A stretch of 64,000 nt of DNA. It comes from a virus. The position numbers were made by a program, and so were the translations under genes. Every line of letters starts with the position of its first letter. Within the stretch, counting starts at the first letter, position 1. The DNA is taken from the IMG/VR virus record IMGVR_UViG_3300042563_002756. One strand, written 5' to 3'. The notes under the pieces were generated by a model. It did no database searches and had not been told where the DNA came from. It saw only the letters and a list, made by a program, of their open reading frames with translations. Of the stretch, positions 31,241-53,876 are shown piece by piece.

Positions 31241-31398
31241 ATTTCACCTTGTGATATATTTAGTTATCACTATCTGCTTTTCCTCAGTATTGTAGCTTAG
31301 TATTGTTTAGGGATACGGTCTAATAATTATTAACGGCATAAATTTTCCTTAATATATAGTAGCATTAAATACAATGCAGTACATTTATAGAGGACACT

Positions 31399-32310
31399 AT
31401 GCGATTTATTTTTTTTACAATTTTAATTTTTATCACTTCTATAGCTAATTCTACAGAACTAATTTGGATAAACTCACCTTATAGTGCAGGTCACAGCGGG
31501 CACAATTCTTTAGAAAAAGTACTTACAAAAGCTAACTCATCTCAACAAGACTATATTTTTAAAATTCAAATAAAACCTGGCGGCCAGGGAATAGTTGCAT
31601 TAAAAGAAACGGATATAAATCCGTCGTCTGCTCTAGCAATTGTACATGCTGCATTTGTTGACAATGTTGAGAAAAATTTAATTAAAAGAAATGATTATGT
31701 TGCTATCCACGGTATGGGAGATGCATGTTGGGCTGTTGTATCGTCAAACGGAATACAATCTGTTGGTGTTTCGAGTCTGCAACACACGTCCGAAATCGTA
31801 GTCGGAACAGTGGGAATTGGAAATGCTACTCATCTTACAGCATTAGAAATTGGTAGAAAATATAATATTCCAGTTAGATTAGTTCCATTTAAATCAAACT
31901 TCGATGCATTTGTCAATCTTGCAGGAAATAATGGAGTTAATTTTACTATAGAACGACTATCCACAGTTCAAAATTTTAAACAAAAGAATTCGAATATTAA
32001 AATTTTAGGACTTAGTTGTACGACAAGATCTCTCTACGAACCATCTATAAAAACTTTATCTGAACAGGGTATAAATGTTCCGTCAGTGTTTAATGTGATT
32101 GTTTCGAATAGACAAATGAGCGAAGCAAAACGAAAAACTATAGGAAGAATTTTAGACAAATCTACTAAAATAGTAGGCAATGATGAGATAATGAAACTTA
32201 GTGATATGAGAAGTCCAGTGTTTGACTCAATTAATGCTGAAGATTTTTTTAATGATAGGATTAATTCTATTTCAAATATTAGAAAACGCCATTCTCAGGC
32301 AATACAATAA
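31399..32310 (+). CDS. TctC/Bug-family periplasmic solute-binding protein-like, divergent (signal peptide)
   Basis: signal peptide; blocks NSPYSAGHSGHNSL, IKPGGQGIVA, VGTVGIGNATHLTALEI, RLVPFKSNFDAFVNL align to TctC conserved blocks. Confidence 0.55.
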   Translation: MRFIFFTILIFITSIANSTELIWINSPYSAGHSGHNSLEKVLTKANSSQQDYIFKIQIKPGGQGIVALKETDINPSSALAIVHAAFVDNVEKNLIKRNDYVAIHGMGDACWAVVSSNGIQSVGVSSLQHTSEIVVGTVGIGNATHLTALEIGRKYNIPVRLVPFKSNFDAFVNLAGNNGVNFTIERLSTVQNFKQKNSNIKILGLSCTTRSLYEPSIKTLSEQGINVPSVFNVIVSNRQMSEAKRKTIGRILDKSTKIVGNDEIMKLSDMRSPVFDSINAEDFFNDRINSISNIRKRHSQAIQ

Positions 32311-32317
32311 CCCTCTT

Positions 32318-32692
32318 TTAAAGTATGTCTGATATGTTCCAATTACCTTCGGGCAGAATAATTTCTTGTACAGTTCCGTCTTCGCTTGATATTTCAATAA
32401 TTTTTGCACCTGCGGTAATGCCTACTAAAGCATTATACTCGTCTCGTATGATCCAAAATGGATCCATTTCCGTATCGTGATCGTATTTGTGAAATTCCTC
32501 TAAATTTTCCCATTCGGCATAATAATTTAAAGTCAATTGGTCTTCACTCACATTATGCTCCCATTTAGTGATCTTTTCTTCTCCAATGTAATAATGCCAA
32601 CGAGTTAACCACTCATCGTCTGGCTGCATTACTTCATAATGCCAGAAAATTTCTGGCATTGGCCTATTAAATACTCTTTTAAAAATTATCAT
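32318..32692 (-). CDS. hypothetical protein (124 aa)
   Basis: ORF. Confidence 0.4.
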   Translation of the reverse strand: MIIFKRVFNRPMPEIFWHYEVMQPDDEWLTRWHYYIGEEKITKWEHNVSEDQLTLNYYAEWENLEEFHKYDHDTEMDPFWIIRDEYNALVGITAGAKIIEISSEDGTVQEIILPEGNWNISDIL

Positions 32693-32728
32693 AAATTCTC
32701 CTAGAAACGGTAGTAATCAATTTTATTT

Positions 32729-33709
32729 ATGCTAAATATGAGTGGTATAAAGGAGATTGATATGACCGCCAAACTAGTTAGATGGGTGCTTGCACACGAA
32801 CCTATTGAAATTTTTATTAGAGCTGCTGAAAAATTTGCTGAGATAGTAGAAGAAAGAGCTCCAGGAAGATTAAAAATTGAAGTATTAATGCTTAGTGAAT
32901 ATGCTGAAAAATATCAAAACGGTAAAAAAATAACCAAGCATGACTTACTTGATTTGATGGATAAAGATGAAATTGAAATGAGTCAAATGTATACCTACGT
33001 CTTGAGTAAGTTTAACAAAGACCTAAATGCATTGGACATGCCATTTTTATTCAACGATCACGATCATGCAGCTAGAGTATTTGAAGGACCTATTGGTGAT
33101 CAACTATTAAACGGTTATTCTAAAACTAACAGTAATATCAAAGGTTTGGCATTTACCTATAGTGGAGGATATAAGAATCTCCCGTTTAATAAAAAGATTA
33201 CTTCGTTAAGTGACTTAAAAGGTGCTAAGGTTAGAGTATCTAACAGTCCTGTATGCTTTGATACATTTAAAGCACTAGGGGCAGATCCTATTGTAATGGA
33301 TGTTGAAGAAATTACCCCTGCAATAAAAGATGGTAGAATTGATGCAGGTGAAAGCTCTTGGCCTAGAATTTACGGTTGCGATCAAAACACAGTTGCTAAA
33401 AGTATTTTTAACACAGGTCACAGTCTGTTATTAACTAATATTATTATCAACACTAAATTCTTTAATAGTTTAGATTACGAGATGCAGAATCTATTAAAGG
33501 AAGCAGCAGTAGAAGCTGGCCGATTCGAAAGAAAAATCAGTGTAGATGATGTTAGTCCTACAATTGATAAAGCACGAGCAGACGGAATCGAAGTAGTTGA
33601 TTTATCTCAGAAAGATCTAGAAACGTTTAAAGAGTTATCAAAAGAAATTTATTCAAAGTACGAAAATTTCTTCAGTAAAGGCTTGTTAGACAATATTAAG
33701 AAACACTAA
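32729..33709 (+). CDS. DctP-family TRAP-type solute-binding protein homolog lacking a signal peptide
   Basis: MPFLFNDHDHAARVFEGPIGDQLL, KGLAFTYSGGYKNL, LKGAKVRVSNSPVCFDTFKALGADPIVMDV match DctP blocks; no N-terminal signal sequence. Confidence 0.7.
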   Translation: MLNMSGIKEIDMTAKLVRWVLAHEPIEIFIRAAEKFAEIVEERAPGRLKIEVLMLSEYAEKYQNGKKITKHDLLDLMDKDEIEMSQMYTYVLSKFNKDLNALDMPFLFNDHDHAARVFEGPIGDQLLNGYSKTNSNIKGLAFTYSGGYKNLPFNKKITSLSDLKGAKVRVSNSPVCFDTFKALGADPIVMDVEEITPAIKDGRIDAGESSWPRIYGCDQNTVAKSIFNTGHSLLLTNIIINTKFFNSLDYEMQNLLKEAAVEAGRFERKISVDDVSPTIDKARADGIEVVDLSQKDLETFKELSKEIYSKYENFFSKGLLDNIKKH

Positions 33710-35013
33710 ACCCAATCTATTTTATAGTTCTTCAACCCGGCTTCAAAGTAACATTTGACTTCGGGTTGATCTATTTTTAAAACTCGATAATTTTCGTCCA
33801 GCGCCCATCTAGTATCTAGATCCTTCCAATTTTGTTTGTATACTCGAGCAATAATTACTGGCATAGATGGCATTTTTATTTTATTAAAAAAATAAAAATC
33901 GTTTTTATCAAATTTGTGCAGATAACATTTTGATGCCCACTTGTATGTACTTTGTGTAATGCCTTTAAGTTTTTCCCCGTTATTGTTATTATGCATACTC
34001 CATTGTTGATAATCTAAAGAACCGAACCAGCTTATTATGTCTTCAGTTAATATTGATTTAAAATTATCGTTAAGTCCGTAAACCATTGCAGGACGAACTG
34101 CACCCCAAACAAATCTAGGATTAAACATTGACCACCAGAAGAAATCATGCAAACTGTAAATCGGTACATTGACACTTTTTATATTGTTGTGTATTTTTTC
34201 ATAAAATAAATGTCCAAAATTTGCATCGTGAGAATTTTCAGAACTTATATTTTGTGGAACGTAGGGTATAGTTTTTAAAGAGTTTATGCCTCTCTTTAAT
34301 GCAGTATTAAAATAATATATTAAAATATCTCGATACTCAGAATAGTGCGTGTTTGAATCACTTACCTTGTTGTAAAGATGACTGAGATTTTTTCTACCGG
34401 CAGTCTGCATAGTTTCTTCAAGGTATTTCATTTGAGGATACAGTTTAACCCCCAATTCTGTTCCGTAAATGAAATCACCTAGATCAGCTGATATACAAAA
34501 ATGTTGTTTATTTTTTATAAAATCACTATAAAAATTTTTAGAAGAATCGATAATTTTAAATTTACCTTCGATGTGATTTGTATAGAAATATGGATTTTCT
34601 ATAATAGAATCAGCACTCATTGAAATTATTATTTTTTCTAAATATTCTTGTCCTAGATTTTTTATTAACGAGGCCATTACAACAGTACTGTCTATTCCTC
34701 CAGAATAAAATACAACACAGTTTTTACCTGTTTGATCGATAATATTTTTTATATCCATTGCCCTGCGGTCTGTTACTTCTTCAAATGATAGATTGAACTT
34801 TAAATCAAAAAGTGGAATCTCCCATCCGGACGGTACTACCGTATCCCAAGGATCACTCCATTCTCCGGCTCTTGACAAATATGCAGCGGGTGGATTTGCT
34901 CTTGCAATATTACAATAAAATCTTCCTCCTTCGTCGAGCTCGTCAAAAAATTTAGACAGAGTTGTTGCAACGCTGTAAGAATTAACCGAAGTGCTTTTAT
35001 ATAGTAGTTTCAT
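33706..35013 (-). CDS. PP-loop ATP-pyrophosphatase-family protein, paralog 1 (435 aa)
   Basis: SGGIDS PP-loop (VVFYSGGIDSTVV); paralogous to 35611, 40604, 42724. Confidence 0.65.
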   Translation of the reverse strand: MKLLYKSTSVNSYSVATTLSKFFDELDEGGRFYCNIARANPPAAYLSRAGEWSDPWDTVVPSGWEIPLFDLKFNLSFEEVTDRRAMDIKNIIDQTGKNCVVFYSGGIDSTVVMASLIKNLGQEYLEKIIISMSADSIIENPYFYTNHIEGKFKIIDSSKNFYSDFIKNKQHFCISADLGDFIYGTELGVKLYPQMKYLEETMQTAGRKNLSHLYNKVSDSNTHYSEYRDILIYYFNTALKRGINSLKTIPYVPQNISSENSHDANFGHLFYEKIHNNIKSVNVPIYSLHDFFWWSMFNPRFVWGAVRPAMVYGLNDNFKSILTEDIISWFGSLDYQQWSMHNNNNGEKLKGITQSTYKWASKCYLHKFDKNDFYFFNKIKMPSMPVIIARVYKQNWKDLDTRWALDENYRVLKIDQPEVKCYFEAGLKNYKIDWV

Positions 35014-35599
35014 ATTTTCTTAAATAGTTGTAGAAAGTTTGCCTATATGAATATAATGATGAACTCATATTGGTGTTTTCTTTGAAAATTTTTGATATTT
35101 TTTCTAAAGCCTCTTGCCTAGATGAAGAAAAATATAAAATATGATCTATATGCCAGAGAAAAGGTTTAGCCAGGCCGGTGTCGTCGGATAATGTTGATAG
35201 TGAAATATCATCGCTAACTAAGGATAATATATATTTTTGATCGCTAGAGTTTAAACTTGCATCAGTTAGTCTAGAAGACAACACAACATTATATGCAAAA
35301 TTGCAATAATTCTGATATTCTAAAAAAACATTCTGAGGAATATCCGGTGATCGTTCTCGAGTATCAAAAAGTTGATCTTCGATATGTTTTATTCGAGGAA
35401 TTGGTTTATCAAGCATTGCAATACTAGGATCTTTTATACCCCATGTGCTGCAATTATCATTATTGATACTGTTATTATTAAATTCAAATAAAGACAATAA
35501 AAATTTGGATGAAAGAATTTTACCAGTTTGTAAAGATATCCATCTGTCGTCTTTAACGAGTAGAAATCTTTCTAAGTTGTTTGAGTATATACCGATCAT
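34997..35599 (-). CDS. hypothetical protein (200 aa)
   Basis: ORF in island operon. Confidence 0.4.
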   Translation of the reverse strand: MIGIYSNNLERFLLVKDDRWISLQTGKILSSKFLLSLFEFNNNSINNDNCSTWGIKDPSIAMLDKPIPRIKHIEDQLFDTRERSPDIPQNVFLEYQNYCNFAYNVVLSSRLTDASLNSSDQKYILSLVSDDISLSTLSDDTGLAKPFLWHIDHILYFSSSRQEALEKISKIFKENTNMSSSLYSYRQTFYNYLRKYETTI

Positions 35600-35610
35600 C
35601 GCAATATTTA

Positions 35611-36495
35611 TTATAGTAAGTTTTTAGGTATTCTAAGTGTGGTTCCTATATAAGGGCTCCAATTAGCACTAGCTGTTTTTTGTAGGTGGTCCATGATTTT
35701 TGTTGCAACATCTGGATTTTTACCAAATACAAAGTTATCAGTTTTTTTCTTATAAACAGATTGATGATGATAATCGGGAAATATTATGCTCGACTTTGGT
35801 TCATAAAAAAATTTGAAATTAGTTCTTAATCTTGGATCTTTTAAAATATGATACCAAGTATTAAAATTTCTACTATAAAAATTACCTTCTCCTTGTTTAT
35901 TATAATGAGTTAAACATTGATTGTATAAAATTTCTGAGAGGTGCAAAGGTATGTAGATGTATTGATTATCAAAATCTTTAACCGAATTATTATAAATTGT
36001 AAGATATTTGTTGACATTATTTTTTTCTATATCCCCTTCTCCCATTATGATATAAAACTCTTTTGGTATAAATTTAGTTAGTATTGCACCTACCACATAT
36101 CCCGGAAACATAACAGGACAAATTTGAAATATTTCGTCGATAATATAATCAAAGATGTCATTAACTGTGATTTCGAAAATGTTAAGTTTTGTGTTGTGGT
36201 ACTGAGAAATTAATTTTGCTCCTTCGAGCATATTGTCATTTATATTTCGAATATGGAGGAAAAAATATTCGCAAGGAACTTTTAGTTTATATAAAGAATT
36301 AGCAATTAATTCACTATCTATACCCGAAAGGCACAATCCTATTTGATTGATGTTTTTTAATTTAGCATCATTATATAAGTCTGTAACTGATAAATCAATA
36401 GCCTCGAGGTAGTTGTTTGTAATAATTGGATCAAACTCGTTAACTGTATAAGTAAATTGACACGTTAATTTATTAAAATTAAAATTTCGTTTCAT
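35611..36495 (-). CDS. PP-loop-like paralog 2 with degenerate motif (294 aa)
   Basis: LCLSGIDSELI (SG-DS with one Gly lost); same fold family as neighbours. Confidence 0.5.
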   Translation of the reverse strand: MKRNFNFNKLTCQFTYTVNEFDPIITNNYLEAIDLSVTDLYNDAKLKNINQIGLCLSGIDSELIANSLYKLKVPCEYFFLHIRNINDNMLEGAKLISQYHNTKLNIFEITVNDIFDYIIDEIFQICPVMFPGYVVGAILTKFIPKEFYIIMGEGDIEKNNVNKYLTIYNNSVKDFDNQYIYIPLHLSEILYNQCLTHYNKQGEGNFYSRNFNTWYHILKDPRLRTNFKFFYEPKSSIIFPDYHHQSVYKKKTDNFVFGKNPDVATKIMDHLQKTASANWSPYIGTTLRIPKNLL

Positions 36496-36745
36496 AATAA
36501 TTAATAACTCTTTGTTTTTTTTCTTTTAATTCTGCACTAATTTCATTTTCTAATAAAATTTCCAATCCCCTTGAGCTCAACGTAAGATGGTATTCGATAA
36601 TATTTTTATTGTTAACAACTTTAAAAAACTCACTGGTTTCTTTTATTTCAATTATAATGTTGTCGTCTGAGACAGTTATATATTCATTTATTATATAACA
36701 GATAAGACCAGTCGCCTTATCTATAATTGCAAATTTTTTAATCAT
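36479..36745 (-). CDS. hypothetical small protein (88 aa)
   Basis: ORF. Confidence 0.35.
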   Translation of the reverse strand: MIKKFAIIDKATGLICYIINEYITVSDDNIIIEIKETSEFFKVVNNKNIIEYHLTLSSRGLEILLENEISAELKEKKQRVINYYETKF

Positions 36746-36756
36746 ATAAATACCTT

Positions 36757-38091
36757 ATGTATAATTTGTGTTCTGTAATTAACTATCAAAATTTAAATAA
36801 ACTTGCAATATCTAACGGAGCACAGTCATTAACATATAAAGAATTAAACAGTTTAGTTGGAAACTATGCCCACTATCTTAGTAGTATCGATCTAAAAAAT
36901 AAAAAAATATTTCTTGATATATCTAACCCTGTTGAATTTATTGCTGCTTATCTAGGAGTGTTAAAGTCAGGTAATATCAGTGTCCTTGTTAATAATAATT
37001 TATCAAAAGAAAAGAAAAAGCAAGTACTTTCTGATTTAGATATAGACTATAGGTTGTCTTCTAAAATATTTCAAGAGATTAACGATATACCAATTGTTGA
37101 AAGAAATGGTAGAGATCCATGCACTATTTTATTCACTTCTGGATCAATCAAATCTAAAGGAGTAATTGTACCCCATAATTTAAAAATTAATGTAGAAAGA
37201 ACTGTAAGTCCTCGAGGAACTAAAAGTTTAAAATTAATCAGTAGTCCCTTGTACCATTTAAACGGTTTATTTAATTGTTTATTAAGTTTAGCAAATGGCG
37301 GAACATTATTTACTGCTGAGAAATTTAGTATAAATTCATTTGAGACGTTTATAGATTCATATGCCATTAATAATATCGTGTGTGTTCCGACGGTAATTAA
37401 TATGTTAAACAATAATAAAATGTTTGATACTGTAAAATTAGTTCGTCTGACAAGTGCTCCGACAAGTTATTCCACTTTTCAAAAAGCTAAAAGAATATTT
37501 CCAAATGCGACTATTAGACTAGGCTACGGTCTTACTGAAGTTGGTTCTAGTTTATTTGGAAATCATCCGTTTTTACCTACTCCGGAAACAAGTGTTGGAT
37601 ATCCGTTTGCTGATATAGAATATAGATTGATCAATAATATACTTGAAATAAATAGCCCTTCTATGTTAATTGGATACACTGATTTAGATAAATCTAAAAT
37701 TACTAAAGATGGTTTTTTTGTTACTAATGATCTATTTGAAATAGATAAAGATGGATTTTATTATTTCATAGGCCGATTTGATGATATGTTTGCATGTGGC
37801 GGAGTAAAAATTTATCCGTCAGAAATAGAAAAAATTTTAGAACAATATGAAGGTGTTGAATCTGCAACGGTAATAAAGGTACAAGACAAAATAAAAGGAT
37901 TTAAACCGTATGCTTTTGTAAAATCTCAACATAATATTTCTCAATTAGATTTAGAAAATTATGTTAGAAGCAAGATGCCGTTTAGTCATTGCCCGAGAAA
38001 AATTTGGGTTGTAAAAGATTTTCCTTATAATAGTATAGGAAAAATTGACAAATTGTCTTTAACAAAAGAAGCTGAAAAATATATATGTTAA
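36757..38091 (+). CDS. ANL-superfamily adenylate-forming enzyme (acyl-CoA ligase / stand-alone adenylation domain)
   Basis: TSGSIKSKG (A3), YGLTE (A5), GGVKIYPSEIE, terminal IGKIDK lysine (A10). Confidence 0.75.
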   Translation: MYNLCSVINYQNLNKLAISNGAQSLTYKELNSLVGNYAHYLSSIDLKNKKIFLDISNPVEFIAAYLGVLKSGNISVLVNNNLSKEKKKQVLSDLDIDYRLSSKIFQEINDIPIVERNGRDPCTILFTSGSIKSKGVIVPHNLKINVERTVSPRGTKSLKLISSPLYHLNGLFNCLLSLANGGTLFTAEKFSINSFETFIDSYAINNIVCVPTVINMLNNNKMFDTVKLVRLTSAPTSYSTFQKAKRIFPNATIRLGYGLTEVGSSLFGNHPFLPTPETSVGYPFADIEYRLINNILEINSPSMLIGYTDLDKSKITKDGFFVTNDLFEIDKDGFYYFIGRFDDMFACGGVKIYPSEIEKILEQYEGVESATVIKVQDKIKGFKPYAFVKSQHNISQLDLENYVRSKMPFSHCPRKIWVVKDFPYNSIGKIDKLSLTKEAEKYIC

Positions 38092-38822
38092 AAAATAAAA
38101 TTGTTTTGATTGCTGGCGGAATGGGACAAATAGGATTAGAAGCAGCATCTAGATTATCAAATTTAGGTGCTATTGTTATTTGTTTAACTAGACAGGACCC
38201 TACTGAAGCAACTAATATTTTAAAAAATATTTCAATAAACTGCATAGCAGTTCAGTGCGATATTAAAAATACAACTATGATAAAAGATGTTGTACAGCAT
38301 ATTAGTAAAGAATATGGAAGAATAGATGTATTGATCAACAGTGCAGGTGTTACACATGATATTAAACTAGGAAATATTGAATCGATTACAGATGAAATAC
38401 TAGATAATATTATTGATACAAATCTAAAAGGATCTTTTAAATTAATAAGAGAATGTAAAGAACTTTTAGATAACTCAAGTAGTCCGCTAATTATTAATGT
38501 GTCATCGACATCAAGTTTACGGGCAAGTCGAAGTAACCCGATTTATGCTGCTTCGAAATCAGGTATTAACATACTGACCCAAACATTAGCATTACACCTT
38601 TCTCCGAGTATTAGGGTTGTTGGAATTGCGCCCGGCTACTTAGAAAAGGCTGTAGCAGGCGCTAATAAACCCAGTGAATATAATGACAAAATAGCACAGT
38701 CGTTACCCTTAAGACGAATTGGCACAGGAAAAGATGTAGTTGATGTGATAGAAAGTATTATTACCAAGATGACATGGATGACTGGAAATACTATTGTATT
38801 GGACGGAGGAATGACCATTTGA
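38085..38822 (+). CDS. short-chain dehydrogenase/reductase (SDR)
   Basis: IAGGMGQIG cofactor motif, NSAG, YAASK catalytic Tyr/Lys. Confidence 0.8.
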   Translation: MLKNKIVLIAGGMGQIGLEAASRLSNLGAIVICLTRQDPTEATNILKNISINCIAVQCDIKNTTMIKDVVQHISKEYGRIDVLINSAGVTHDIKLGNIESITDEILDNIIDTNLKGSFKLIRECKELLDNSSSPLIINVSSTSSLRASRSNPIYAASKSGINILTQTLALHLSPSIRVVGIAPGYLEKAVAGANKPSEYNDKIAQSLPLRRIGTGKDVVDVIESIITKMTWMTGNTIVLDGGMTI

Positions 38823-40595: not shown

Positions 40596-40603
40596 AATCT
40601 TGT

Positions 40604-41857: not shown

Positions 41858-42700
41858 TTAGTTTAAATTAGAGCCTAACCAGTTGCCATAATGCACACAA
41901 TGATCCTCTAGTCTATTAGAAGATCGTGTGAGCGGATAGTGCGGTCCTTTCTGAGATTCAATCGCAGCAACATCTTCTCGAAAAACAGGTTCTATATAGT
42001 GTTCAAATTTTTCTCTTTGTCCTACATTGGTAGTTTTATCGAAATAATATTGTGTGATCCAATTAAAACCAAATTCACTTTCTGTATTGTGCGGGGTAGT
42101 ATAATTTAATGCTACACACCCCGGGCTCCATTCTATAAACGTATATGGATAAACAAATAACCACCAGCCTGTTGAACAGGTTTGCAAAATCCATCCGTCA
42201 CCGTCATACATTTCAATATCATTTAAATTTGTAATTTCTGCTAATTCAGGATGTACTACATCTTCACCTTGTCTAATATGTAGTAGGTCTGCCTGTATTT
42301 CCATCATCCAAAGCCAACTACCCTTTTCACTTGTTCCGTGTCTAGAATGGCTATATTCTAGATTAGTCTCTGTTGCAAGATCGTTGACCCATTGGTGATC
42401 TGGTTCTAAAAAGTTTTTAAATATTAATCCACTTTTTCCAGTTTGTGCAGATCCACATGCAATTTTTCGATCGTTGTTTATAGGATCTCCGTCCTTATTC
42501 CATTCAAATCCATGAAACTTGCATACTATATTTTCAACTATTGAACCCGGCTCTGCTAGCGGATACATACGATGGGGGCAATGGCGTCGAAAAAGATTTA
42601 TTTTATCTTGATTTTTATTAAGGATATAATCTGGTACAACAAAATTGCCAGCATCGAGGGCAGATGTATGGGCTAAAATTTTTGGTGGATTGTTGAACAT
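41858..42700 (-). CDS. Rieske [2Fe-2S] domain oxygenase-like protein (280 aa)
   Basis: CPHR ... CKFHG (CxH-x16-CxxH) Rieske signature; His-containing C-terminal domain. Confidence 0.65.
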   Translation of the reverse strand: MFNNPPKILAHTSALDAGNFVVPDYILNKNQDKINLFRRHCPHRMYPLAEPGSIVENIVCKFHGFEWNKDGDPINNDRKIACGSAQTGKSGLIFKNFLEPDHQWVNDLATETNLEYSHSRHGTSEKGSWLWMMEIQADLLHIRQGEDVVHPELAEITNLNDIEMYDGDGWILQTCSTGWWLFVYPYTFIEWSPGCVALNYTTPHNTESEFGFNWITQYYFDKTTNVGQREKFEHYIEPVFREDVAAIESQKGPHYPLTRSSNRLEDHCVHYGNWLGSNLN

Positions 42701-42723
42701 GTATTTTCTTTTTCTACAAATAT

Positions 42724-43641
42724 TTATTGTAATAACAAACGGTTTAATTCTTCTTCAGAATATTTAATTGTAGTATCGTCGATGTCTCTCATATATTTGT
42801 TATAAAAATCATTAATAAATTGAGGTCTATGAGCTACAGGATTATCTAATCCCTCGTATCCTACTAGTTTAGGTTTATATTCCATTGTAGGCCAAATGTA
42901 TTTGTGTATAGCAACTCTACTGCTGATATTACTAATCTTGCCCAAGTGCTCATCATTTAGTAGTTGCCTAACTAATGGAAGTTCTTTATAAGACATAATT
43001 ATTTCAGGAGTATATTCGTACCAATCACCTATAATAGTTCTCCCTATATTTTTAGCGTAGGTAGATACAGAATATCCATCCTCGTGTAATTGAAATAGCC
43101 AACGAGACTTTTTACTGTAATCATTTTCTAATTCACGACGCCAGTAAGGTTCGCCGTCGCAGAAGATAGGTATGTTGTCTAAGTAGTCAATAAATTTAAG
43201 TCTAGGCAGTCTCCCTGCCATTGGTATCAGTGTACTATTAAACAATTCCAATGCTTCTTCTTTAAAGAATTTTTCTACGTTAAAATCGACGATATTGTAA
43301 GGTATGTTTAGTTCGTTGCATAATTTTACAGCATTGTTTACGTCGCGAATATTGTAGTTATTTTCTAATCTAAAGATAAAAGTATTATGTTTAATACCAG
43401 CACTCTTAAATGTTCTGACAACTATTTCACTGTCTGTACCTCCACTAAGGCATACGTCAAACGGTTCTTTATAAGAATCTCGCATGATACGTGCATTATT
43501 AATGAGTGCGTCTTTATAAGAAGTTAACGGAGTACTGATCTTGTTGTTAAAATTTATAGATATAATACTATGTTTATCTTTTTTAACACCGTATTCAATA
43601 CCGTCAAAATTATAACTCATCCAGTTATTAAATCTTTGCAT
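42724..43641 (-). CDS. PP-loop ATP-pyrophosphatase-family protein, paralog 4 (305 aa)
   Basis: CLSGGTDSEIVV PP-loop. Confidence 0.65.
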   Translation of the reverse strand: MQRFNNWMSYNFDGIEYGVKKDKHSIISINFNNKISTPLTSYKDALINNARIMRDSYKEPFDVCLSGGTDSEIVVRTFKSAGIKHNTFIFRLENNYNIRDVNNAVKLCNELNIPYNIVDFNVEKFFKEEALELFNSTLIPMAGRLPRLKFIDYLDNIPIFCDGEPYWRRELENDYSKKSRWLFQLHEDGYSVSTYAKNIGRTIIGDWYEYTPEIIMSYKELPLVRQLLNDEHLGKISNISSRVAIHKYIWPTMEYKPKLVGYEGLDNPVAHRPQFINDFYNKYMRDIDDTTIKYSEEELNRLLLQ

Positions 43642-43649
43642 TGAATATT

Positions 43650-45128
43650 CTAATCTGATTTGTGTTGTAAGTTAAAAGTCTTTGATAGTTCTAACATATC
43701 ATTTACGTATATTTCGCATTCTTTCTTAATCAACGAGGGAATATTATATTTAGATATTATTTCTTTTCTGGATAAATTCAATAATTCCTTATCTGGAATT
43801 CCGAATCGTCTTAGGTAATTATAAGTAAATCCACCGAATTTAAATTTTGAAAACTTGTTAGATTTTTCTGTTATATTGTGAGCAATATCAAAGCACTGTG
43901 AGTAACTTAACCCTGTATTTTTATTATACCATCCTTCATCTGTAATTTCATAACCATACTTATCATGATTAATATCAAATTCAGAGTGGAAGTTTTTATT
44001 AGTTTTACTAAGAGGAGAAATACCTAAGGGATTTACATACCAGCTATCTAAATAATTTTTGTCTGAGAATAAAAATTCTTCAAGTTCGGTAAAAGTATCA
44101 AGCGTATCATGTGGTAATCCTAATATAAATCCTGAATTTAATATTACGTCTTTGAATTCATTTTGTTTTAATTCTTTTATAAATTCTAATTGATCGTAGG
44201 GATTTAAACCTTTACCAATAGATTTAGCAGATTGGTGATTAATACTTTCAATACCAAACATTGCCGATGTGAGCCCGGACTCTTTTAAGTACGGGATAGA
44301 CTCTGGAAATCGCATTAGTAAGTCAATCCTCAAATAACTAGAAAAATGAATTTTAAATTTAAGTTTAGAAAATACGTTATCATGTAAATATTTTAACTTG
44401 TCTAAACTATCATTATAGGTATCATCACTAAAAGTATAATAAGTTATTCCAAAATTTTCATAATTATAATTTAACTCATCTAATAAAACATTTCCGTGTT
44501 TTATCCACTCACCTTTTGTTTTTCCGTTTAATGGGAATGCACAAAACTTACATTTAAAAATGCAACCTCTGCTTATCTCAATTGGCAATGCATCTAAATT
44601 ACTAATCAGATCATTTTTAGTGTACGTTATTTGACTTGATGAAAAATCTTTAAATTCACTACCTTGAATTAATGTAGTACGAAAAGAAATATTAGATGAT
44701 TTGTTTGTCAAACACCATTCAGTGAATTCTATAATTTCTTTGTCACTATAGCTCTTGAATATCTTTACTCCATATTGTTCTAATGGAAAATATCTAGACC
44801 CACCTGATATTATTTTAACTTTGGGATTTAAATTCTTGATAAATTGTATAAAGTTAACAAACAGTTCATCGTTTGTAGTAGATTTAAACGTTAATCCAAG
44901 AAGTTTATCAAAAAATGTAGTACTAAATCCTACCCACAATGTGCTTGATGATATTGAATTTTTTAAGACTTCTTTTAGCTGTTCTAGTTTATTCACATAT
45001 TCAAATGCACTTAGATCAATGCACACAGTAGAATAATTATTCTTTCTCAGTTCGGATGATATTCTAAATACGCCGCCGTGCTTTTGTAGTGGCATTGGGG
45101 TACTACCGTATAATAAAATACAATTCAT
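43650..45128 (-). CDS. radical SAM enzyme with N-terminal B12-binding-like domain, paralog 1
   Basis: CxxxCxxC (RGCIFKCKFCAF); N-terminal Rossmann-like region; 492 aa. Confidence 0.7.
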   Translation of the reverse strand: MNCILLYGSTPMPLQKHGGVFRISSELRKNNYSTVCIDLSAFEYVNKLEQLKEVLKNSISSSTLWVGFSTTFFDKLLGLTFKSTTNDELFVNFIQFIKNLNPKVKIISGGSRYFPLEQYGVKIFKSYSDKEIIEFTEWCLTNKSSNISFRTTLIQGSEFKDFSSSQITYTKNDLISNLDALPIEISRGCIFKCKFCAFPLNGKTKGEWIKHGNVLLDELNYNYENFGITYYTFSDDTYNDSLDKLKYLHDNVFSKLKFKIHFSSYLRIDLLMRFPESIPYLKESGLTSAMFGIESINHQSAKSIGKGLNPYDQLEFIKELKQNEFKDVILNSGFILGLPHDTLDTFTELEEFLFSDKNYLDSWYVNPLGISPLSKTNKNFHSEFDINHDKYGYEITDEGWYNKNTGLSYSQCFDIAHNITEKSNKFSKFKFGGFTYNYLRRFGIPDKELLNLSRKEIISKYNIPSLIKKECEIYVNDMLELSKTFNLQHKSD

Positions 45129-45898
45129 GTTTTGATTACCTTAATAATTAGTCCAGCAATATCAAGTTCCCACCATTTCTTTTTGAACATATAGTCTTTA
45201 GGGTATCGATGATGATTATTGTGCCACGATTCCCCCCAACTAGGAATAGCCCATATCCAGTTGTTTGTGCTTTGATCGTTTATATTATAACTACGATATC
45301 CACCTAACCAATCAGGTTTATGACCTACGTAATTAACTACATTACTCATAATTCCAGTAATCAGCGACGGTGCCCAAAGTAAAAATATCATTAAATAAAA
45401 TCCACCAATCATAAACAATATCATGCTATACACAGCAATAATTGCAAAATAATAACGGTGTAAAAACTGTTGAAATTTATCCGTTACTATATTTCTCATA
45501 CGCCATTTAGTATTACTATCAATTTCATTTACGTAATCAAGTGTAAAGATTTTCAAGCCTTTATATAATGGACTGTGAGGATCACTTGGTTTGTCACTTT
45601 TTAAGTGATGATTAATATGAATAGCGACCCATGCTAATGGACTTCCTGTTCCTGCAAAACAGCCCATCACTGATAAAATTTTAGTTAATAAAGGATATGT
45701 AGTATAGCTATTATGAGTAAGGCTTCTATGGTATGTGACGACAATACCCAAACAACCGTATAAAAAATATCCTAACAATATAAGCAATACAGCGTTAGTC
45801 GTTAGACCATACCAAGTTATTCCAGAAATGGTACCTAGTAATGATAAAATCATGAATAGTTGGGAACCGCGTGTGCTAGATGATAGATATGTTGTCAT
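45125..45898 (-). CDS. acyl-CoA/acyl-lipid Delta9 fatty-acid desaturase-family membrane protein, paralog 1
   Basis: His boxes HRSLTH, HINHH...DPH, HNNHH with SCD-like spacing; multiple TM segments. Confidence 0.75.
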   Translation of the reverse strand: MTTYLSSSTRGSQLFMILSLLGTISGITWYGLTTNAVLLILLGYFLYGCLGIVVTYHRSLTHNSYTTYPLLTKILSVMGCFAGTGSPLAWVAIHINHHLKSDKPSDPHSPLYKGLKIFTLDYVNEIDSNTKWRMRNIVTDKFQQFLHRYYFAIIAVYSMILFMIGGFYLMIFLLWAPSLITGIMSNVVNYVGHKPDWLGGYRSYNINDQSTNNWIWAIPSWGESWHNNHHRYPKDYMFKKKWWELDIAGLIIKVIKT

Positions 45899-45928
45899 AA
45901 AGTTATGTAACTTATTATTTTAAGTTAT

Positions 45929-46522
45929 TTAATCTTGTTGTAGCGTACTCCAGGCATAATTGTAATATTTTAAATAGCTACGGTTAATCAAATGTTCGAA
46001 GTCATTGTTTGGTTCTCCGTATACCGCTAATAGACCCTTGCTACAATTAGGATCATATTTGGAAGAATGTTTTACTGGGCCGTCTAGATAATAAAAACTG
46101 TTAGTATCATTTGGCATCGTTAAGGTATAGGAACTAGTTTCATTTGTAAAATTCCATACAGGTTCTTGATAAGTGTTCCAGAGGAATGTTCGTATACTAG
46201 GGGTATTTCTTGTGTTATCAGAATGGGGGGATATCGTTTCTAAATTTTCTATCACTCTGATAAGTCCAATTTTAAATTTAACTGAATCTTGAATTTGTTT
46301 GCATAAGTCTATCACTACTGGATTCTGTTCAGCATATGGTGCTTGATAACTGGTAGGATGGCCACGAATTTTGTATAAGTCTAAGCCTCGCCAGTTTGAC
46401 GAAACGGTGTTGTGGTTCCTAATAGCTTTATGCATAACATCAGCAGTCTTCCAGGTACTCCACCATTCATTCCAATCATTGGGTACAATTTTAGGTATAT
46501 CTAACGGACAAACTAATATCAT
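45929..46522 (-). CDS. hypothetical protein (197 aa)
   Basis: ORF between the two desaturases. Confidence 0.4.
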   Translation of the reverse strand: MILVCPLDIPKIVPNDWNEWWSTWKTADVMHKAIRNHNTVSSNWRGLDLYKIRGHPTSYQAPYAEQNPVVIDLCKQIQDSVKFKIGLIRVIENLETISPHSDNTRNTPSIRTFLWNTYQEPVWNFTNETSSYTLTMPNDTNSFYYLDGPVKHSSKYDPNCSKGLLAVYGEPNNDFEHLINRSYLKYYNYAWSTLQQD

Positions 46523-46639
46523 TAATTATTAAACTTACTTTTTATCGATTTATAAGATTCTGTAGTTGACCCGAATGATAGCAAATATCTGACTTTGCGC
46601 CGACCTTTATTTGATACCCTATGAAATTGTTTAGTGCTA

Positions 46640-47446
46640 TCATGATTTTTTTCTAATAAAAATAATAAAATTTCCTAATGAGTCAACTTCCCACCATTTT
46701 ATTTTAGTGGTAAAATTTCCAGGATTTTTATGATGATTATTATGCCAGGCATCCCCGAGTATAAAGGGCCATAACCAGATGTTATTAGTACTAGTATCTC
46801 GAGTTTCGAAGTTTCTATGTCCGTGCATATGAGCAAAATAGTTAAAACAGTTTTGACTTAGCTGTACTAACATAACAGGTAATACCCATGTAAAATAAAT
46901 TAAATCGATATTGATAAAACTTAAAAAAACCAACCATGTAAATATTATAGCAAAATACCATTTATTAATAAAGAGATGTTCTTTGGTCATTAGCTCTTTT
47001 ACTAAAAATACTTTCATCTTACCACTATGAGTTTCGATGTGTTTAAATCCAAATAATTTAAATCCTAAGTTATGAGGACTATGCGGGTCCTCATGTTGAT
47101 CTGAGTAGGCATGATGTAATCGATGCACATATACCCAACCTAAGGGGCTTCCTCGACCAGTAAGTATTGCAATCAACGTACAGATCCATTTTAGCAGGTT
47201 ACTGTTAAATTCAAAAGATTTATGACTATAGTACCTATGCAACGTAAGACTTACACCTATAATACTATAGAGATAAAAACTTATAGTTGTTATTAGAATA
47301 TTTTGAAAAGTAAAATCAAAATAAAACAATCCAATAATTGCACATAGGCTTGTGGCTAGTTGAACTTTGGTAATTGTGGTTGCACTTGCTGAAAACATAT
47401 TGTATTTATGAACTAAATATTTTAAGGACACAAATATTCCTTGCAC
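46640..47446 (-). CDS. acyl-CoA/acyl-lipid Delta9 fatty-acid desaturase-family membrane protein, paralog 2
   Basis: HRYYSH, HRLHHAYSDQHEDPH, HNNHH His boxes. Confidence 0.75.
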   Translation of the reverse strand: MQGIFVSLKYLVHKYNMFSASATTITKVQLATSLCAIIGLFYFDFTFQNILITTISFYLYSIIGVSLTLHRYYSHKSFEFNSNLLKWICTLIAILTGRGSPLGWVYVHRLHHAYSDQHEDPHSPHNLGFKLFGFKHIETHSGKMKVFLVKELMTKEHLFINKWYFAIIFTWLVFLSFINIDLIYFTWVLPVMLVQLSQNCFNYFAHMHGHRNFETRDTSTNNIWLWPFILGDAWHNNHHKNPGNFTTKIKWWEVDSLGNFIIFIRKKS

Positions 47447-47488
47447 TTGTAGGAAGCATAAGTATAGTTATCTACTGAATTTATTCCT

Positions 47489-48094
47489 ATGAAAATTGTA
47501 CGTTACAGAGAATTGATCGACAATACTGAATTTTTTACTTTTTTAAAAACAGAGTCACTTGAAATAGATCAGCTAGCAAGCATAAATCTTTGGACAGAAG
47601 ATCAGCAATCTAACAGTCATACGCTATCTTATATTTTAACAAACACTAACCGGTTTGATGGAGTTAACGGTGACTTCTATATCCTTTATGATGGTAATAA
47701 TATAGTGGCATGTAGCGGCGTATACATAAGTGAATTTAGTAAAGATATTGTAATTGCAGGCGTGCGTACTTGGGTGAATAAAAATTACCGCCATTTAACA
47801 TTGAATAGAGACTATCTTTTAGCAGAACAAAAAAAATGGGCAATAGATAGAAATGCAAAAATAATAGCATTATCGTTTAATGAGTATAACAAAAACATTA
47901 TTCAAATTTTCAAGCGTAACCGGCTAGGAGAAAACTCAGGAAGAATTAACAGTCGGTTGCCCAAACATATTTTTTACAATGGTTTACAGGAAATTAAATT
48001 TCCGATAATAATTCAATATACTCCTCAGTGGGTAATCTACGAAAAATTAGATTCAAATTTTACATTTGACTGGACTACTATTAAATGGAAGTAA
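47489..48094 (+). CDS. hypothetical protein, possible GNAT-like fold (201 aa)
   Basis: weak acyl-CoA N-acyltransferase-like core; speculative. Confidence 0.3.
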   Translation: MKIVRYRELIDNTEFFTFLKTESLEIDQLASINLWTEDQQSNSHTLSYILTNTNRFDGVNGDFYILYDGNNIVACSGVYISEFSKDIVIAGVRTWVNKNYRHLTLNRDYLLAEQKKWAIDRNAKIIALSFNEYNKNIIQIFKRNRLGENSGRINSRLPKHIFYNGLQEIKFPIIIQYTPQWVIYEKLDSNFTFDWTTIKWK

Positions 48095-49554
48095 TATTAT
48101 TCACTGATGTTGCAGATACTATAGGTTACGGGAAATATGCCGGGACTTACAAAATAGCAACTGAAATTAGAAACTCAGGATACTCTTGTCAGGTAATAGA
48201 CTTATTCAGTTTTTATTCATATGAGCAATTAACAAATATCGTTGATAAGTTTGTTACTAACGAGACATTACTAATTGGATTTAGCTGCACACTAATGGAA
48301 AAACGTGAAGACAATAGTGTTAAAAATTTTGGAAGAGACACCGAAGAATTTGTATCTATTGTAAAGTACTCTAAATCTAAAAATTCAAAAGTCAAAGTTT
48401 GTCTCGGTGGTGCACGAATGACCTTGAATTCATATTGGTCGGGAGTTGATTATGTAGTAATAAACAAAGGTGATGTAGCTATAATAAAGTTGCTAGAGCA
48501 TCTATCTACAGGCGCTGATTTAAAAACTGTAAAGACTACTCCTTGCTATGTTATAGATGGCAGTGATTATTTTTATACTCAAGAGCAGTTTGCTACTAGT
48601 AGCATTATATATCAGCCACAGGATATTATTTTTACAGGGGAATCGTTACCTATAGAAATAGCTCGAGGTTGTATATTTCAATGTGCATTTTGCCACTTCG
48701 ATCTAATAGGAAAAAAAGTAGGCGATTGGCAAAAAGATGAACAAGTTTTGCAAGAAGAGTTGATAAGAAACTATGAACTCTTTGGAACAACTCACTATAT
48801 GTTTGCTGACGAATTGATCAATGAAAGTCTTCCTAAGATGGAAATGATCCATAGAGTGTTTACCAACTTACCTTTTAAAATTTCATACACTAGTTATGCA
48901 AGATTAGATTTGATTTGGAAGTTTCCCGAGATGCGAGAAATGCTATTAGAAAGTGGGGCAGCTAGTTTAGCATTCGGAATAGAAACTATGAATGATCGCG
49001 CTGGAAAGAAAATAGGAAAAGGTCTAGGAGAAAAGCGTATTAAAGAGACGCTAGCCTATTGTGGAGAGTTATGGAAGGGTAAGATTATTACCAGTAGCAA
49101 TTTTATTGTAGGATTACCTGGTGAAGATGAAAATAGTATATACAGGACGTTAGATTATTTGTTAAGCAATGAATGTTCTTTAGATGTATTTGGATTTCTA
49201 CCATTGTACATCAGATCAGATCATGACGGAAGAAGTACAAGCAAAATTGATCAAGACCCTAAGAAGTATGGATACTCGATTAAAATCAATCAGCCCTGGG
49301 AAAGTGATCAGATGAATTTTACAGAAGCATCTGCCCTTGTGCGTAAGATATATAATGATCCTAGACTACAACAACGTAGTAAGTTCAGTGCCGCTACCTG
49401 GATAGGTCGTATTATGAATCTAGGATATACGATTGAAGAAATATTTGAAATGATCAGTGATAAAGAAACTTCTTTTGATCAGCTCAATACACTATTAGTC
49501 AGTCGAAGTTTGCTATTGAAATCTCAATACTACAACAAACTAATGTCTCTTTAA
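48085..49554 (+). CDS. radical SAM enzyme with N-terminal B12-binding-like domain, paralog 2
   Basis: RGCIFQCAFCHF CxxxCxxC; collinear with 43650..45128. Confidence 0.7.
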   Translation: MEVILFTDVADTIGYGKYAGTYKIATEIRNSGYSCQVIDLFSFYSYEQLTNIVDKFVTNETLLIGFSCTLMEKREDNSVKNFGRDTEEFVSIVKYSKSKNSKVKVCLGGARMTLNSYWSGVDYVVINKGDVAIIKLLEHLSTGADLKTVKTTPCYVIDGSDYFYTQEQFATSSIIYQPQDIIFTGESLPIEIARGCIFQCAFCHFDLIGKKVGDWQKDEQVLQEELIRNYELFGTTHYMFADELINESLPKMEMIHRVFTNLPFKISYTSYARLDLIWKFPEMREMLLESGAASLAFGIETMNDRAGKKIGKGLGEKRIKETLAYCGELWKGKIITSSNFIVGLPGEDENSIYRTLDYLLSNECSLDVFGFLPLYIRSDHDGRSTSKIDQDPKKYGYSIKINQPWESDQMNFTEASALVRKIYNDPRLQQRSKFSAATWIGRIMNLGYTIEEIFEMISDKETSFDQLNTLLVSRSLLLKSQYYNKLMSL

Positions 49555-53138: not shown

Positions 53139-53142
53139 AGAG

Positions 53143-53716: not shown

Positions 53717-53835
53717 TTTTCTACCACCTTATATCCTGAGTAGGGATAGTGTTCTTGCAACCATTCCAACATGCCTGGTTCATTGGGCAGTCGGATTGAA
53801 TCGTATTTGTTTGTGATATACACTATGCTTTCTCT

Positions 53836-53859: not shown

Positions 53860-53876
53860 TTCTTCTTTTTGTCTAA

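Follow-up and report, generated by a model that had tools for sequence, protein, structure and literature searches.

The 64,000-nucleotide viral sequence held in IMG/VR as record IMGVR_UViG_3300042563_002756 (hereafter the window) carries, between 31.3 and 49.6 kb, an AT-rich island of 20 open reading frames (ORFs; g1-g20) encoding mainly enzymes and solute-binding proteins, to which a first-pass annotation had drawn attention. We analysed its composition, gene content, boundaries and relatives. It is near certain that this 18.3-kb island is an optional cassette, as the phage population, 98-99% identical, has members with and without it. Its gene families recur in viral contigs, and they may serve the tailoring of an acyl chain together with amide ligation.

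Composition and gene content of the island

Over positions 31300-49550 the guanine plus cytosine (GC) content is 32.0% (26.6-34.9% in 1-kb windows), against 41.2% in the left flank (1-31300) and 41.6% in the right flank (49551-64000). The first-pass annotation had described a sharp fall from 40-55% to 18-30% GC; composition is indeed not uniform and the drop of about 9 points is real, but the contrast was overstated and the right edge is softer than claimed, as the stretch from 50.0 to 52.2 kb also has 31-39% GC. All 20 island genes lie at 24-37% (mean 32.0%) and the 35 flank genes average 41.4% (Mann-Whitney p = 1.5e-7), with GC1, GC2 and GC3 all lower in the island genes. The peak of 47-52% that had been counted near 9-12 kb arises because the tail-fibre genes there, which have collagen-like matches, show very high GC at the second codon position (0.57-0.69). 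Five isolated flank genes are about as AT-rich as the island (those with 32-34% GC in the 41%-GC flanks are listed in Table 1, one of them a 2OG-Fe(II) oxygenase gene), and such isolated genes are probably further single-gene acquisitions.

The island was expected to hold about 20 tightly spaced genes, and its 20 ORFs do follow each other with tiny gaps or overlaps; they are arranged in seven alternating strand blocks, which is the minimum number of transcription units. A scan for promoters and terminators gave counts equal to the shuffled expectation, and an Rfam scan of the window found a tRNA only (tRNA-Gly(GCC), the sole RNA gene), with no riboswitch near the B12/SAM enzymes. As had been stated earlier for capsid, tail and replication genes, Pfam and NCBIfam scans of the island ORFs detected no structural or replication gene.

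Table 1. Features of the island and of its flanks, with the number of viral loci (n=92) in which each island family was detected. Lengths are in amino acids (aa).
Feature	Position	Strand	Evidence or remark	Loci
g1, divergent TctC-like periplasmic binding protein with signal peptide	31399-32310	+	Pfam TctC 24.7 bits, under cut-off 27	
g2, 124 aa, family not matched	32318-32692	-	Recurs beside g3/g4 in other viral loci	
g3, DctP-family (TRAP) binding-protein homologue	32729-33709	+	PF03480 190 bits, cut-off 23.4	3
g4, PP-loop ATP pyrophosphatase, 435 aa, family unassigned	33706-35013	-	SGGIDS motif; weak NCBIfam PP-loop matches	14
g5, 200 aa, family not matched	34997-35599	-	Homologues adjoin g4 in L016 and L070	
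g6, degenerate PP-loop protein (LSGIDS)	35611-36495	-	Distant relative of g14 family	5
g7, 88-aa ORF	36479-36745	-	Position only	
g8, ANL adenylating enzyme, acyl/aryl-CoA ligase type	36757-38091	+	Pfam AMP-binding 117.5 bits plus C-terminal domain	11
g9, classical SDR (FabG-like)	38085-38822	+	Pfam adh_short 142 bits	11
g10, BKACE beta-keto-acid cleavage enzyme	38774-39691	+	Pfam BKACE (PF05853) 300.8 bits, cut-off 24.8	11
g11, TctC-family periplasmic binding protein with signal peptide	39684-40595	-	Pfam TctC 34.7 bits, cut-off 27	10
g12, PP-loop protein (SGGSDS), 417 aa, family unassigned	40604-41857	-	Motif; 41 columns around it common with g14 family	17
g13, small Rieske-type non-haem-iron oxygenase	41858-42700	-	Pfam Rieske 35.2 bits	6
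g14, PP-loop amide-synthetase-like protein (SGGTDS), 305 aa	42724-43641	-	Asparagine-synthetase-type synthetase domain	38
g15, radical SAM enzyme, class B by homology, paralog of g20	43650-45128	-	PF04055 56.1 bits, cut-off 29.5	17
g16, SCD-type membrane di-iron desaturase	45125-45898	-	FA_desaturase PF00487 70.6 bits, cut-off 29.7	33
g17, 197 aa, invariant H-x-D...H...K pattern	45929-46522	-	Motif in 10 homologues	14
g18, second SCD-type desaturase	46640-47446	-	PF00487 59.4 bits, cut-off 29.7	21
g19, predicted GNAT-fold acyl-CoA N-acyltransferase	47489-48094	+	AlphaFold2 pLDDT 91; Foldseek	23
g20, predicted B12-type (class B) radical SAM enzyme, neighbourhood anchor	48085-49554	+	PF04055 51.0 bits, cut-off 29.5	77
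Island proper	31272-49605	.	Absent from near-identical relatives; ~70 bp in its place (blastn of L111-L113)	
Right recombination zone	49606-50010	-	Mosaic, divergent 3' two-thirds of dCMP deaminase gene (49551-50057)	
GTP cyclohydrolase I and envelope-sugar genes	28669-29367, 29417-30250, 15489-16424, 4138-4602, 50054-50809, 52116-53138		Backbone	
Tail-fibre genes	7053-10019, 10103-11650		Collagen-like matches	
Isolated low-GC flank genes	12108-13190, 14687-15337, 16421-16903, 51358-52119		32-34% GC	
Segments without counterpart in L111-L113	60207-61002, 58482-59109			
2OG-Fe(II) oxygenase gene	60218-60826		31% GC; within 60207-61002	
tRNA-Gly(GCC)	63556-63629		Sole RNA gene found in the window	

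The island is a mosaic of at least three sub-modules (A, g1-g7; B, g8-g10; C, g11-g20), since its families are reshuffled between viral loci and yet also co-occur elsewhere. Sub-module C contains TctC, PP-loop, Rieske, radical SAM, desaturase and GNAT genes, among them the two radical SAM paralogs that had been recognised from the letters as B12-type. Both exceed the PF04055 cut-off and carry the CX3CX2C cluster motif (CIFKCKFC at residue 189 of g15, CIFQCAFC at residue 196 of g20, with C196, C200 and C203 invariant in 24 homologues), and they are 37% identical to each other (BLASTP). The B12-binding domain PF02310 scores 21.7 bits in g20, below the cut-off of 32.1, and has no match in g15; a match to it is precomputed for many g20 homologues, and the best NCBIfam neighbours are all B12-type radical SAM families. 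Neither protein belongs to a characterised subfamily among those compared (PhpK, HpnP/R, BchE, ladderane), the best score being 78 bits against a cut-off of 600 (PhpK) and the others far below, and the only PDB profile match has an E value of 5e-4.

The two desaturase paralogs, 32% identical (BLASTP), were likewise correctly assigned to their family. In the alignment of g16 with mouse SCD1 (4ymk; E 8e-12) its boxes HRSLTH, HINHH and HNNHH fall on HRLWSH, HRAHH and HNYHH, and g18 has HRYYSH, HRLHH and HNNHH, so that each has the three histidine boxes of the SCD/DesC type (HX4H, HX2HH, HX2HH) together with transmembrane helices, a crude hydropathy scan giving four hydrophobic segments in g16 and two in g18. 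The NCBIfam model DesA_fam_desat reaches 91.6 and 75.1 bits for g16 and g18, respectively (cut-off 400).

Four PP-loop paralogs had been announced. Four PP-loop proteins are present, with the canonical SGGxDS motif in g4, g12 and g14 and the degenerate LSGIDS in g6, but what they have in common is the motif region only, as in the comparison of g4 with the g14 family; the exception is the pair g6/g14, for which hhalign aligned 75 columns (E 1e-4). They thus represent at least three distant families, and their matches to QueC-like proteins are weak and sub-threshold. The fold of g14 is closest to the synthetase domains of asparagine synthetase, beta-lactam synthetase and CarA. Unlike the AsnB-family proteins (AsnB, beta-lactam synthetase, carbapenam synthetase CarA, TsnB9), to which it is 9-12% identical, g14 reaches no NCBIfam or Pfam family threshold and starts about 60 residues ahead of the PP-loop, with no match to a glutaminase (class II glutamine amidotransferase) domain in the Pfam/NCBIfam scans. 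Because this N-terminal domain is lacking, g14 works like the synthetase half only.

The assignment of a Rieske oxygenase also holds: g13 has weak PDB matches to SxtT, SxtDIOX and DdmC, and a 65% identical homologue in locus L013. In g17 the residues H100, D102, H152 and K162 are invariant in 10 homologues, a pattern by which the protein is possibly a cupin-type Fe(II) oxygenase. We rejected it as an Asp/Asn beta-hydroxylase, given that there was no Pfam match and that hhalign to phage Asp_Arg_Hydrox was insignificant; the H-x-D...H motif remains. The modelled structure of the orphan g19 identifies it as a GNAT acyltransferase, with Foldseek matches to PaiA, SpeG and BjaI at probability 1.0, and some of its homologues match PF00583.

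In sub-module B the calls of an ANL enzyme, an SDR and a BKACE are confirmed by Pfam scores well above the cut-offs. The best PDB matches of g8 are MenE, FadD13 and malonyl-CoA synthetase. The match of g10 spans positions 1-273 of the 274 in the PF05853 profile, and in its alignment to PDB 9zsc (E 1e-79) the HLHVRDPETG stretch, which contains the His-x-His metal site, is identical. It remains under every NCBIfam equivalog cut-off, including that of NF052387, the 3-keto-5-aminohexanoate cleavage enzyme (244.8 bits, cut-off 382). The order g8-g9-g10 is kept in 11 IMG/VR contigs. Bacterial BKACE genes reportedly cluster with a dehydrogenase and a CoA-handling enzyme (Bastard et al. 2014). The phage gene is similar in that a full-length BKACE adjoins an SDR and a CoA ligase near TRAP/TTT-type binding proteins, but the phage unit consists of three conserved genes, has no membrane transporter subunits and is accompanied by a DctP homologue without a signal peptide. 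A SAR11 TRAP-transporter island containing a BKACE has been described (PMC11796062).

Three orphan solute-binding proteins had been noted, and these correspond to one DctP homologue (g3) and two TctC-like proteins (g1 and g11). The TctC (TTT) domain of g11 is accompanied by a signal-like N-terminus; g1, below the Pfam cut-off, has a hydrophobic N-terminus and is joined to the g11 family by an iterated profile that reaches g11-type TctC proteins. No TctA/TctB genes are present. The generic TRAP model NF037995, with 139.5 bits for g3 (cut-off 50), is the sole specific NCBIfam model that passes its cut-off in the island. A hydrophobic N-terminal segment was absent from g3 and from its full-length homologues in two other viral loci (L016 9192-10148, L070 2541-3482), and g3 is probably cytoplasmic because it has no signal peptide; DctQ/DctM membrane subunits were found neither in the window nor in related loci. 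The sequences suggest for the phage DctP homologues a role as cytoplasmic ligand carriers and not in uptake. In the window, L016 and L070 they always adjoin the g4 PP-loop gene and g5. Of the two small ORFs, g2 has no Pfam or NCBIfam match but has homologues in five loci (L070, L097, L001, L002, L004), and g7 gave no match in Pfam, NCBIfam or the viral loci.

Phage backbone, empty site and breakpoints

The flanks contain phage genes for tail fibres, a ClpP-like head protease, a clamp loader, PhoH, dCMP deaminase (cd), rIIB and rIIA, together with genes for a nucleotide-sugar epimerase, a UDP-glucose-dehydrogenase-like protein, a heptose-kinase/adenylyltransferase-like protein, two glycosyltransferases and GTP cyclohydrolase I, and the whole 4-53 kb stretch is rich in host-surface auxiliary metabolic genes (AMGs). 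The genome had been called T4-like, with dCMP deaminase and then rIIA/rIIB immediately after the island. The deaminase gene does follow directly (PHROG dCMP deaminase, E 1e-51), but rIIB and rIIA lie 5 kb further on, and the phage is not T4-like in the strict sense: the nearest cultured phages are Pseudomonas jumbo phages of the PA5oct type, to which the clamp loader is 60.7% and rIIA 28% identical, and Agrobacterium phage Atu_ph07 comes next. As the 90%-identity cluster of the window's rIIA occurs on contigs of up to 376 kb, the backbone is that of an uncultured jumbo myophage of about 375 kb, related to the PA5oct group and with some T4-like genes. Megablast against cultured phages gave no match for the island or the right flank.

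Three contigs of 375, 280 and 227 kb (L111-L113), with rIIA at least 90% identical to that of the window, lack the island. In these relatives the dCMP deaminase gene is followed directly by homologues of the window genes 30506-31240, 29417-30250 and 28669-29367, and blastn identity to the window is 98.4% over 58481-49606 and 99.2% over 31271-27746. The left break, read base by base, is exact at 31271/31272. The right break is a zone from 49606 to about 50010 within the dCMP deaminase gene, where 30-bp windows are 53-97% identical to the island-less allele up to about 50010 and 100% identical thereafter, and where the C-terminal ~55 residues of the deaminase differ between the island-plus and island-less alleles. 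The exact g20 protein is found on 10 contigs and the exact g1 protein on 13, from JGI, Logan and NCBI assemblies. Six other island-carrying contig stretches retrieved from these sources are 99.99-100% identical to the window, and a 33,961-bp JGI contig covers the left junction and the whole island and continues 5 kb beyond its right end.

No integrase or recombinase was found among the 20 island ORFs in the Pfam/NCBIfam scans, a repeat search revealed no att-like flanking direct repeats, and there is no tRNA target at the island, the only tRNA being 14 kb away. The att or tRNA remnants whose presence had been proposed for checking are therefore lacking, and the island does not resemble an integrase-mediated one, its breakpoint lying in a homologous gene. 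Because no integrase, att site or tRNA flanks it, exchange probably took place by recombination between phages, and we infer that homologous recombination with other phages brought the island in or removed it, the crossover on the right falling within the dCMP deaminase gene. Of the two directions, gain is the likelier in view of the large GC contrast. The polarity is nevertheless uncertain, and none of 92 viral loci offered a donor in which g20 adjoins cd.

The empty site, and the reordering of the same families in L016, L070, L013, L027, L116 and other loci, place the island in a hyperplastic AMG region as known from large aquatic myophages. Two further segments of the window are without counterpart in L111-L113 (Table 1) and represent additional small cassette indels in the population. 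L111 (JGI 3300042559 contig, 374,908 bp) has a resident desaturase cluster at 1-2368, on the far side of rIIA, one copy of which is 73% identical to g16 at the DNA level; an equivalent cluster would fall just past the end of the window.

Recurrence of the island families in viral loci

A search with g20 yielded 562 homologues at E < 1e-10, all of them metagenomic proteins on contigs of up to 349 kb, and relatives are encoded in 369 contigs of IMG/VR. When 185,579 species genomes were scanned for the motif, no close relative emerged, only generic B12-type radical SAM proteins of 21-25% identity. Cultured phages gave no tblastn match for g20 or g14, and PHROGs has no family for g14, g15, g17, g19 or g20; the desaturases g16 and g18 have a weak match only, to an unannotated PHROG family (35-52 bits). 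With g16, tblastn against cultured phages found a distant match in Pelagibacter phage Mosig and two 'Acinetobacter phage' records resembling a bacterial chromosome. In one of these (L119, GenBank CAKLQH020000002.1, 'Acinetobacter phage MD-2021a') the desaturase region contains trpBC, btuB, baeSR and aidB and looks bacterial.

We called the ORFs of 92 viral loci around g20 and annotated them with iterated profiles, which recovered families that single-sequence scans had missed; the latter, a method that needs close relatives, had given no match for g12 and g4 in IMG/VR or for g10 in genomes. The proposed check for synteny in metagenomes thus shows that the gene set is not a one-off: its families recur, reshuffled, around g20 (Table 1). 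Gene order varies between loci. Two loci, L016 and L070, contain 12 island families each, and in L016 all 12 are on one strand with overlapping ends, in the order Rieske, g6, ANL, SDR, BKACE, g5, g4, g1, g3, GNAT, GDSL-like, g14, unassigned, desaturase, ATP-grasp and g12; relative to the island, this locus adds a second GNAT and the ATP-grasp ligase. The g5-g4-g3 adjacency is kept in the window, L016 and L070, and g19 almost always adjoins g20. The recurrent core of the neighbourhood is made up of class-B radical SAM enzymes, SCD-type desaturase arrays, asparagine-synthetase-like PP-loop amide synthetases and GNAT proteins, and it has so far been seen in viral contigs only.

In 42 loci the module genes have a mean GC content 2.3 points lower than that of their neighbours, the difference being negative in 38 (Wilcoxon p = 3e-7, some loci being near-duplicates), and in the L116 lineage the module stands at about 30-35% against 44% in its surroundings. 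The desaturases are expanded to an extent unusual for phages, with eight paralogs within 20 kb in L060 and about six each in L025 and L030. Genes for a NifU-like Fe-S scaffold and an AdoMet decarboxylase lie near the radical SAM/desaturase cluster in L114 (14958-15344 and 1-324) and L011 (18931-19287), and these neighbours may provide cofactor or polyamine support.

We found no account of this enzyme combination in phages in the literature. New are the neighbourhood of B12-type radical SAM, desaturase-array, PP-loop and GNAT genes, the conserved phage BKACE trio, the signal-less DctP homologue and, for a jumbo phage, the clean polymorphism between island-plus and island-minus forms. Desaturases of phages, and hypervariable regions rich in AMGs, were already known.

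Proposed acyl-chain tailoring and its alternatives

Several of the island families have well-established chemistry. The products of ANL enzymes are acyl-adenylates or acyl-CoA, and SCD-type desaturases work in the membrane, where they introduce double bonds into acyl chains. Methylation of unactivated carbons is the usual reaction of class-B radical SAM enzymes, GNATs use acyl-CoA to acylate amines, and asparagine-synthetase-type domains convert carboxylates to amides. BKACE enzymes convert a beta-keto acid and acetyl-CoA to acetoacetate and acyl-CoA, an SDR supplying or consuming the keto group, and secreted TctC proteins need the host TctAB permease. Acyl tailoring with amide ligation is our preferred reading because it is the simplest common denominator of this enzyme set. 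We propose, with a probability of about 0.45, that the cassette tailors an aliphatic acyl chain and combines this with amide ligation to give a remodelled envelope lipid or an N-acyl amide. The first-pass annotation had guessed at a lipid or at an acylated amino compound as the product; this agrees with our findings and, judged from the predicted enzymes, is the leading hypothesis.

During infection, the enzymes would act on an aliphatic acyl chain and on its carboxyl or amine end. The ANL enzyme g8 would make the acyl-CoA, the membrane desaturases g16 and g18 would introduce double bonds into the chain, the Rieske enzyme g13 and probably also g17 would add hydroxyl groups, and the radical SAM enzymes g15 and g20 would methylate unactivated carbons. 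The acyl group would be moved onto an amine by g19, and the PP-loop enzymes would adenylate carboxylates and close amide bonds. This would yield either an altered lipid (or lipid-linked component) of the envelope or a free N-acyl amide. In addition, the secreted TctC-like proteins g1 and g11 may bind a precursor that is a carboxylate and pass it to the TctAB permease of the host, and the SDR and BKACE may interconvert a beta-hydroxy or beta-keto acid with acyl-CoA or acetoacetate.

A functional analogy is offered by bacterial ornithine lipids, which are made and tailored by the N-acyltransferase OlsB, the LpxO/AspH-like hydroxylase OlsC and the di-iron hydroxylase OlsE. The two would have in common that an N-acyltransferase of GNAT-like fold, dependent on acyl-CoA/ACP, is combined with Fe(II) hydroxylases and with a di-iron enzyme of the membrane, and that the acyl chain on which they act is linked through an amide. 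In contrast, no sequence-level membership of the Ols families was found, and the radical SAM, PP-loop and BKACE enzymes have no counterpart there. Among phages, a close parallel is provided by the Delta9 lipid desaturases of cyanophages (vFADs), which were shown by experiment to be active and to desaturate C16 chains (Roitman et al., ISME J 2017/18; PMC5776448). These are phage-borne DesC/SCD-type membrane desaturases with three histidine boxes, and g16 and g18 have the same box pattern. However, the vFADs are single stand-alone AMGs from the cyanobacterial host (PMC5776448), whereas here 2-8 divergent paralogs per locus stand among B12 radical SAM, PP-loop and GNAT genes, their regiospecificity being predicted by family only, and the island desaturases are without a close relative in cultured phages.

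Several points weigh against acyl tailoring as a common task of the island. The mechanism is read from folds and motifs; every specific NCBIfam model apart from the generic TRAP model at g3 is far under its cut-off, and it is a motif that suggests the oxygenase assignment of g17. The genes do not form a single operon, and the ANL-SDR-BKACE trio, found without other island families nearby in 10 of its 11 viral contigs, may have a function of its own. In the hyperplastic regions of phages, genes can be neighbours because they insert at the same hot-spots and not because they belong to one pathway, and the apparent linkage is inflated because the loci were chosen through g20. Moreover, the modification of glycans or peptides would be an equally suitable task for asparagine-synthetase-like, ATP-grasp, GNAT and B12 radical SAM enzymes.

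Some of these points bear on the most credible alternative, which we nevertheless consider unlikely, that unrelated auxiliary genes were piled up as independent morons in a hyperplastic region and have no common product. The binding proteins would then boost uptake, ANL-SDR-BKACE would burn a beta-hydroxy acid for acetyl-CoA, the desaturases would adjust membrane fluidity, and the radical SAM and PP-loop enzymes would have separate tasks. Besides the seven strand blocks and the solitary trio, this accords with the single low-GC genes scattered elsewhere in the window and with the second, single-gene indel (60207-61002) relative to the same island-less phages. Single desaturases are known as stand-alone phage AMGs (PMC5776448), and the hypervariable regions of pelagimyophages, with radical SAM, transport and lipopolysaccharide (LPS) genes, have been described as non-syntenic mixtures (Zaragoza-Solas et al. 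2020; PMC7029224). A pile of unrelated genes is difficult to reconcile with the joint recurrence of these families in many different orders (of the 92 loci, 38 have g14 and 33 the desaturases), with the co-directional, overlapping string of twelve families in L016, with the near-constancy of the g19-g20 pair and the adjacency of g5-g4-g3 in three lineages, or with a binding-protein homologue, g3, that has no signal peptide and so cannot serve uptake.

The comparison with such regions has two sides. As in the host recognition cluster of pelagi- and cyanomyophages, the island is part of a variable region in which close relatives differ by added gene cassettes, and in the window a stretch of about 45 kb takes in the tail fibres, the sugar enzymes and the island; in Pelagibacter phage Mosig (MT647606.1, 50.7-69.3 kb) the tail fibres have as neighbours a GNAT, two Asp_Arg_Hydrox proteins, a distant desaturase and radical SAM genes of the MoaA-like kind. 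The backbone here, however, is that of a jumbo phage of ~375 kb related to PA5oct, the position of the island is between cd and the GTP cyclohydrolase I/UDP-glucose-dehydrogenase-like block and not between VrlC and gp14, and B12-type radical SAM enzymes, the g14 PP-loop family and the BKACE trio have not been described in those regions and are missing from cultured phages.

It is distinctly less likely that the island modifies glycans or proteins, either by decorating host polysaccharide or LPS sugars, for example through amidation of uronic acids, or by modifying a peptide or the phage tail fibres. Sugar amidotransferases and lasso-peptide cyclases are both members of the asparagine synthetase family, and asparagine-synthetase-like and ATP-grasp ligases would suit such a role, together with the GNAT, the B12 radical SAM methylases and the hydroxylases. 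The flanks hold UDP-glucose dehydrogenase-like, nucleotide-sugar epimerase, heptose-kinase-like and glycosyltransferase genes, distant g20 relatives adjoin Asp_Arg_Hydrox proteins and the further radical SAM families fam3 and fam9 (the fam3 sequence looks SPASM-like by eye), and the analogous genes of phage Mosig adjoin an ArnB-like aminotransferase, a carbamoyltransferase and tail fibres. Inside the island, however, there is no glycosyltransferase or nucleotide-sugar enzyme, and its very short intergenic gaps fit no precursor-peptide-like ORF. Integral-membrane desaturases of the SCD type in 2-8 copies per locus are left unexplained; we know of no role of such enzymes on sugars or peptides.

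A nucleotide or DNA hypermodification pathway, 7-deazaguanine-like or acting on pyrimidines and linked to dCMP deaminase and GTP cyclohydrolase I, is very improbable. The island does adjoin cd, a GTP cyclohydrolase I gene is 2 kb away, and the PP-loop proteins give the weak QueC matches mentioned above, but cd and GTP cyclohydrolase I belong to the backbone, as they are adjacent to each other in the island-less relatives. The Pfam/NCBIfam scans of the island detected no QueD, QueE, DpdA/TGT, hydroxymethylase or kinase, so that the set QueC, QueD, QueE and DpdA/TGT of a queuosine/7-deazaguanine module is not assembled; the radical SAM enzymes group with B12-type families and are not QueE-like, and membrane desaturases do not fit. 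These scans, and the lack of a PHROGs family for five core genes, bear out the earlier view that the island is not an LPS-sugar, queuosine or known hypermodification module. Finally, an assembly chimera, or host or other low-GC DNA misjoined into a phage contig, is suggested by nothing but the abrupt GC change and is extremely improbable, because both junctions are reproduced in the six other contig stretches from JGI, Logan and NCBI, a natural empty site exists, viral contigs as long as 365 kb hold relatives of the island genes and no close g20 relative was found in the cellular genomes scanned.

Acyl tailoring with amide ligation can also be stated in a bolder form, which is speculative and somewhat unlikely: that a virus-only pathway is traded as cassettes among large aquatic phages, and that its expanded SCD-type desaturase arrays, B12-dependent radical SAM methylases, asparagine-synthetase-like amide synthetases and GNAT jointly produce, in infected cells, a modified lipid or N-acyl amide not described before. 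The compound might alter the cell surface so that superinfection is hindered, or it might be a signal or a toxin, and the cytoplasmic DctP-fold protein would have been co-opted to carry the substrate.

Most auxiliary metabolic genes of phages encode single enzymes that derive from the host. The present set comprises many enzymes, its anchor enzyme is without a cellular counterpart in the genomes scanned, and it occurs in hundreds of large-phage contigs, with natural presence/absence polymorphism. On a conservative reading, the island documents that jumbo phages exchange cassettes through recombination within a conserved gene. Nature has provided an experiment here, since one backbone exists in an island-plus and an island-minus variant that differ by 18 kb, through which genes are linkable to phenotype. 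If the enzymes do make one product, viruses would direct a lipid or acyl-amide chemistry of a new class in bacteria of fresh and marine waters, and functions would be gained for several orphan families, namely one clade each of class-B radical SAM, GNAT and signal-less DctP proteins and three clades of PP-loop proteins.

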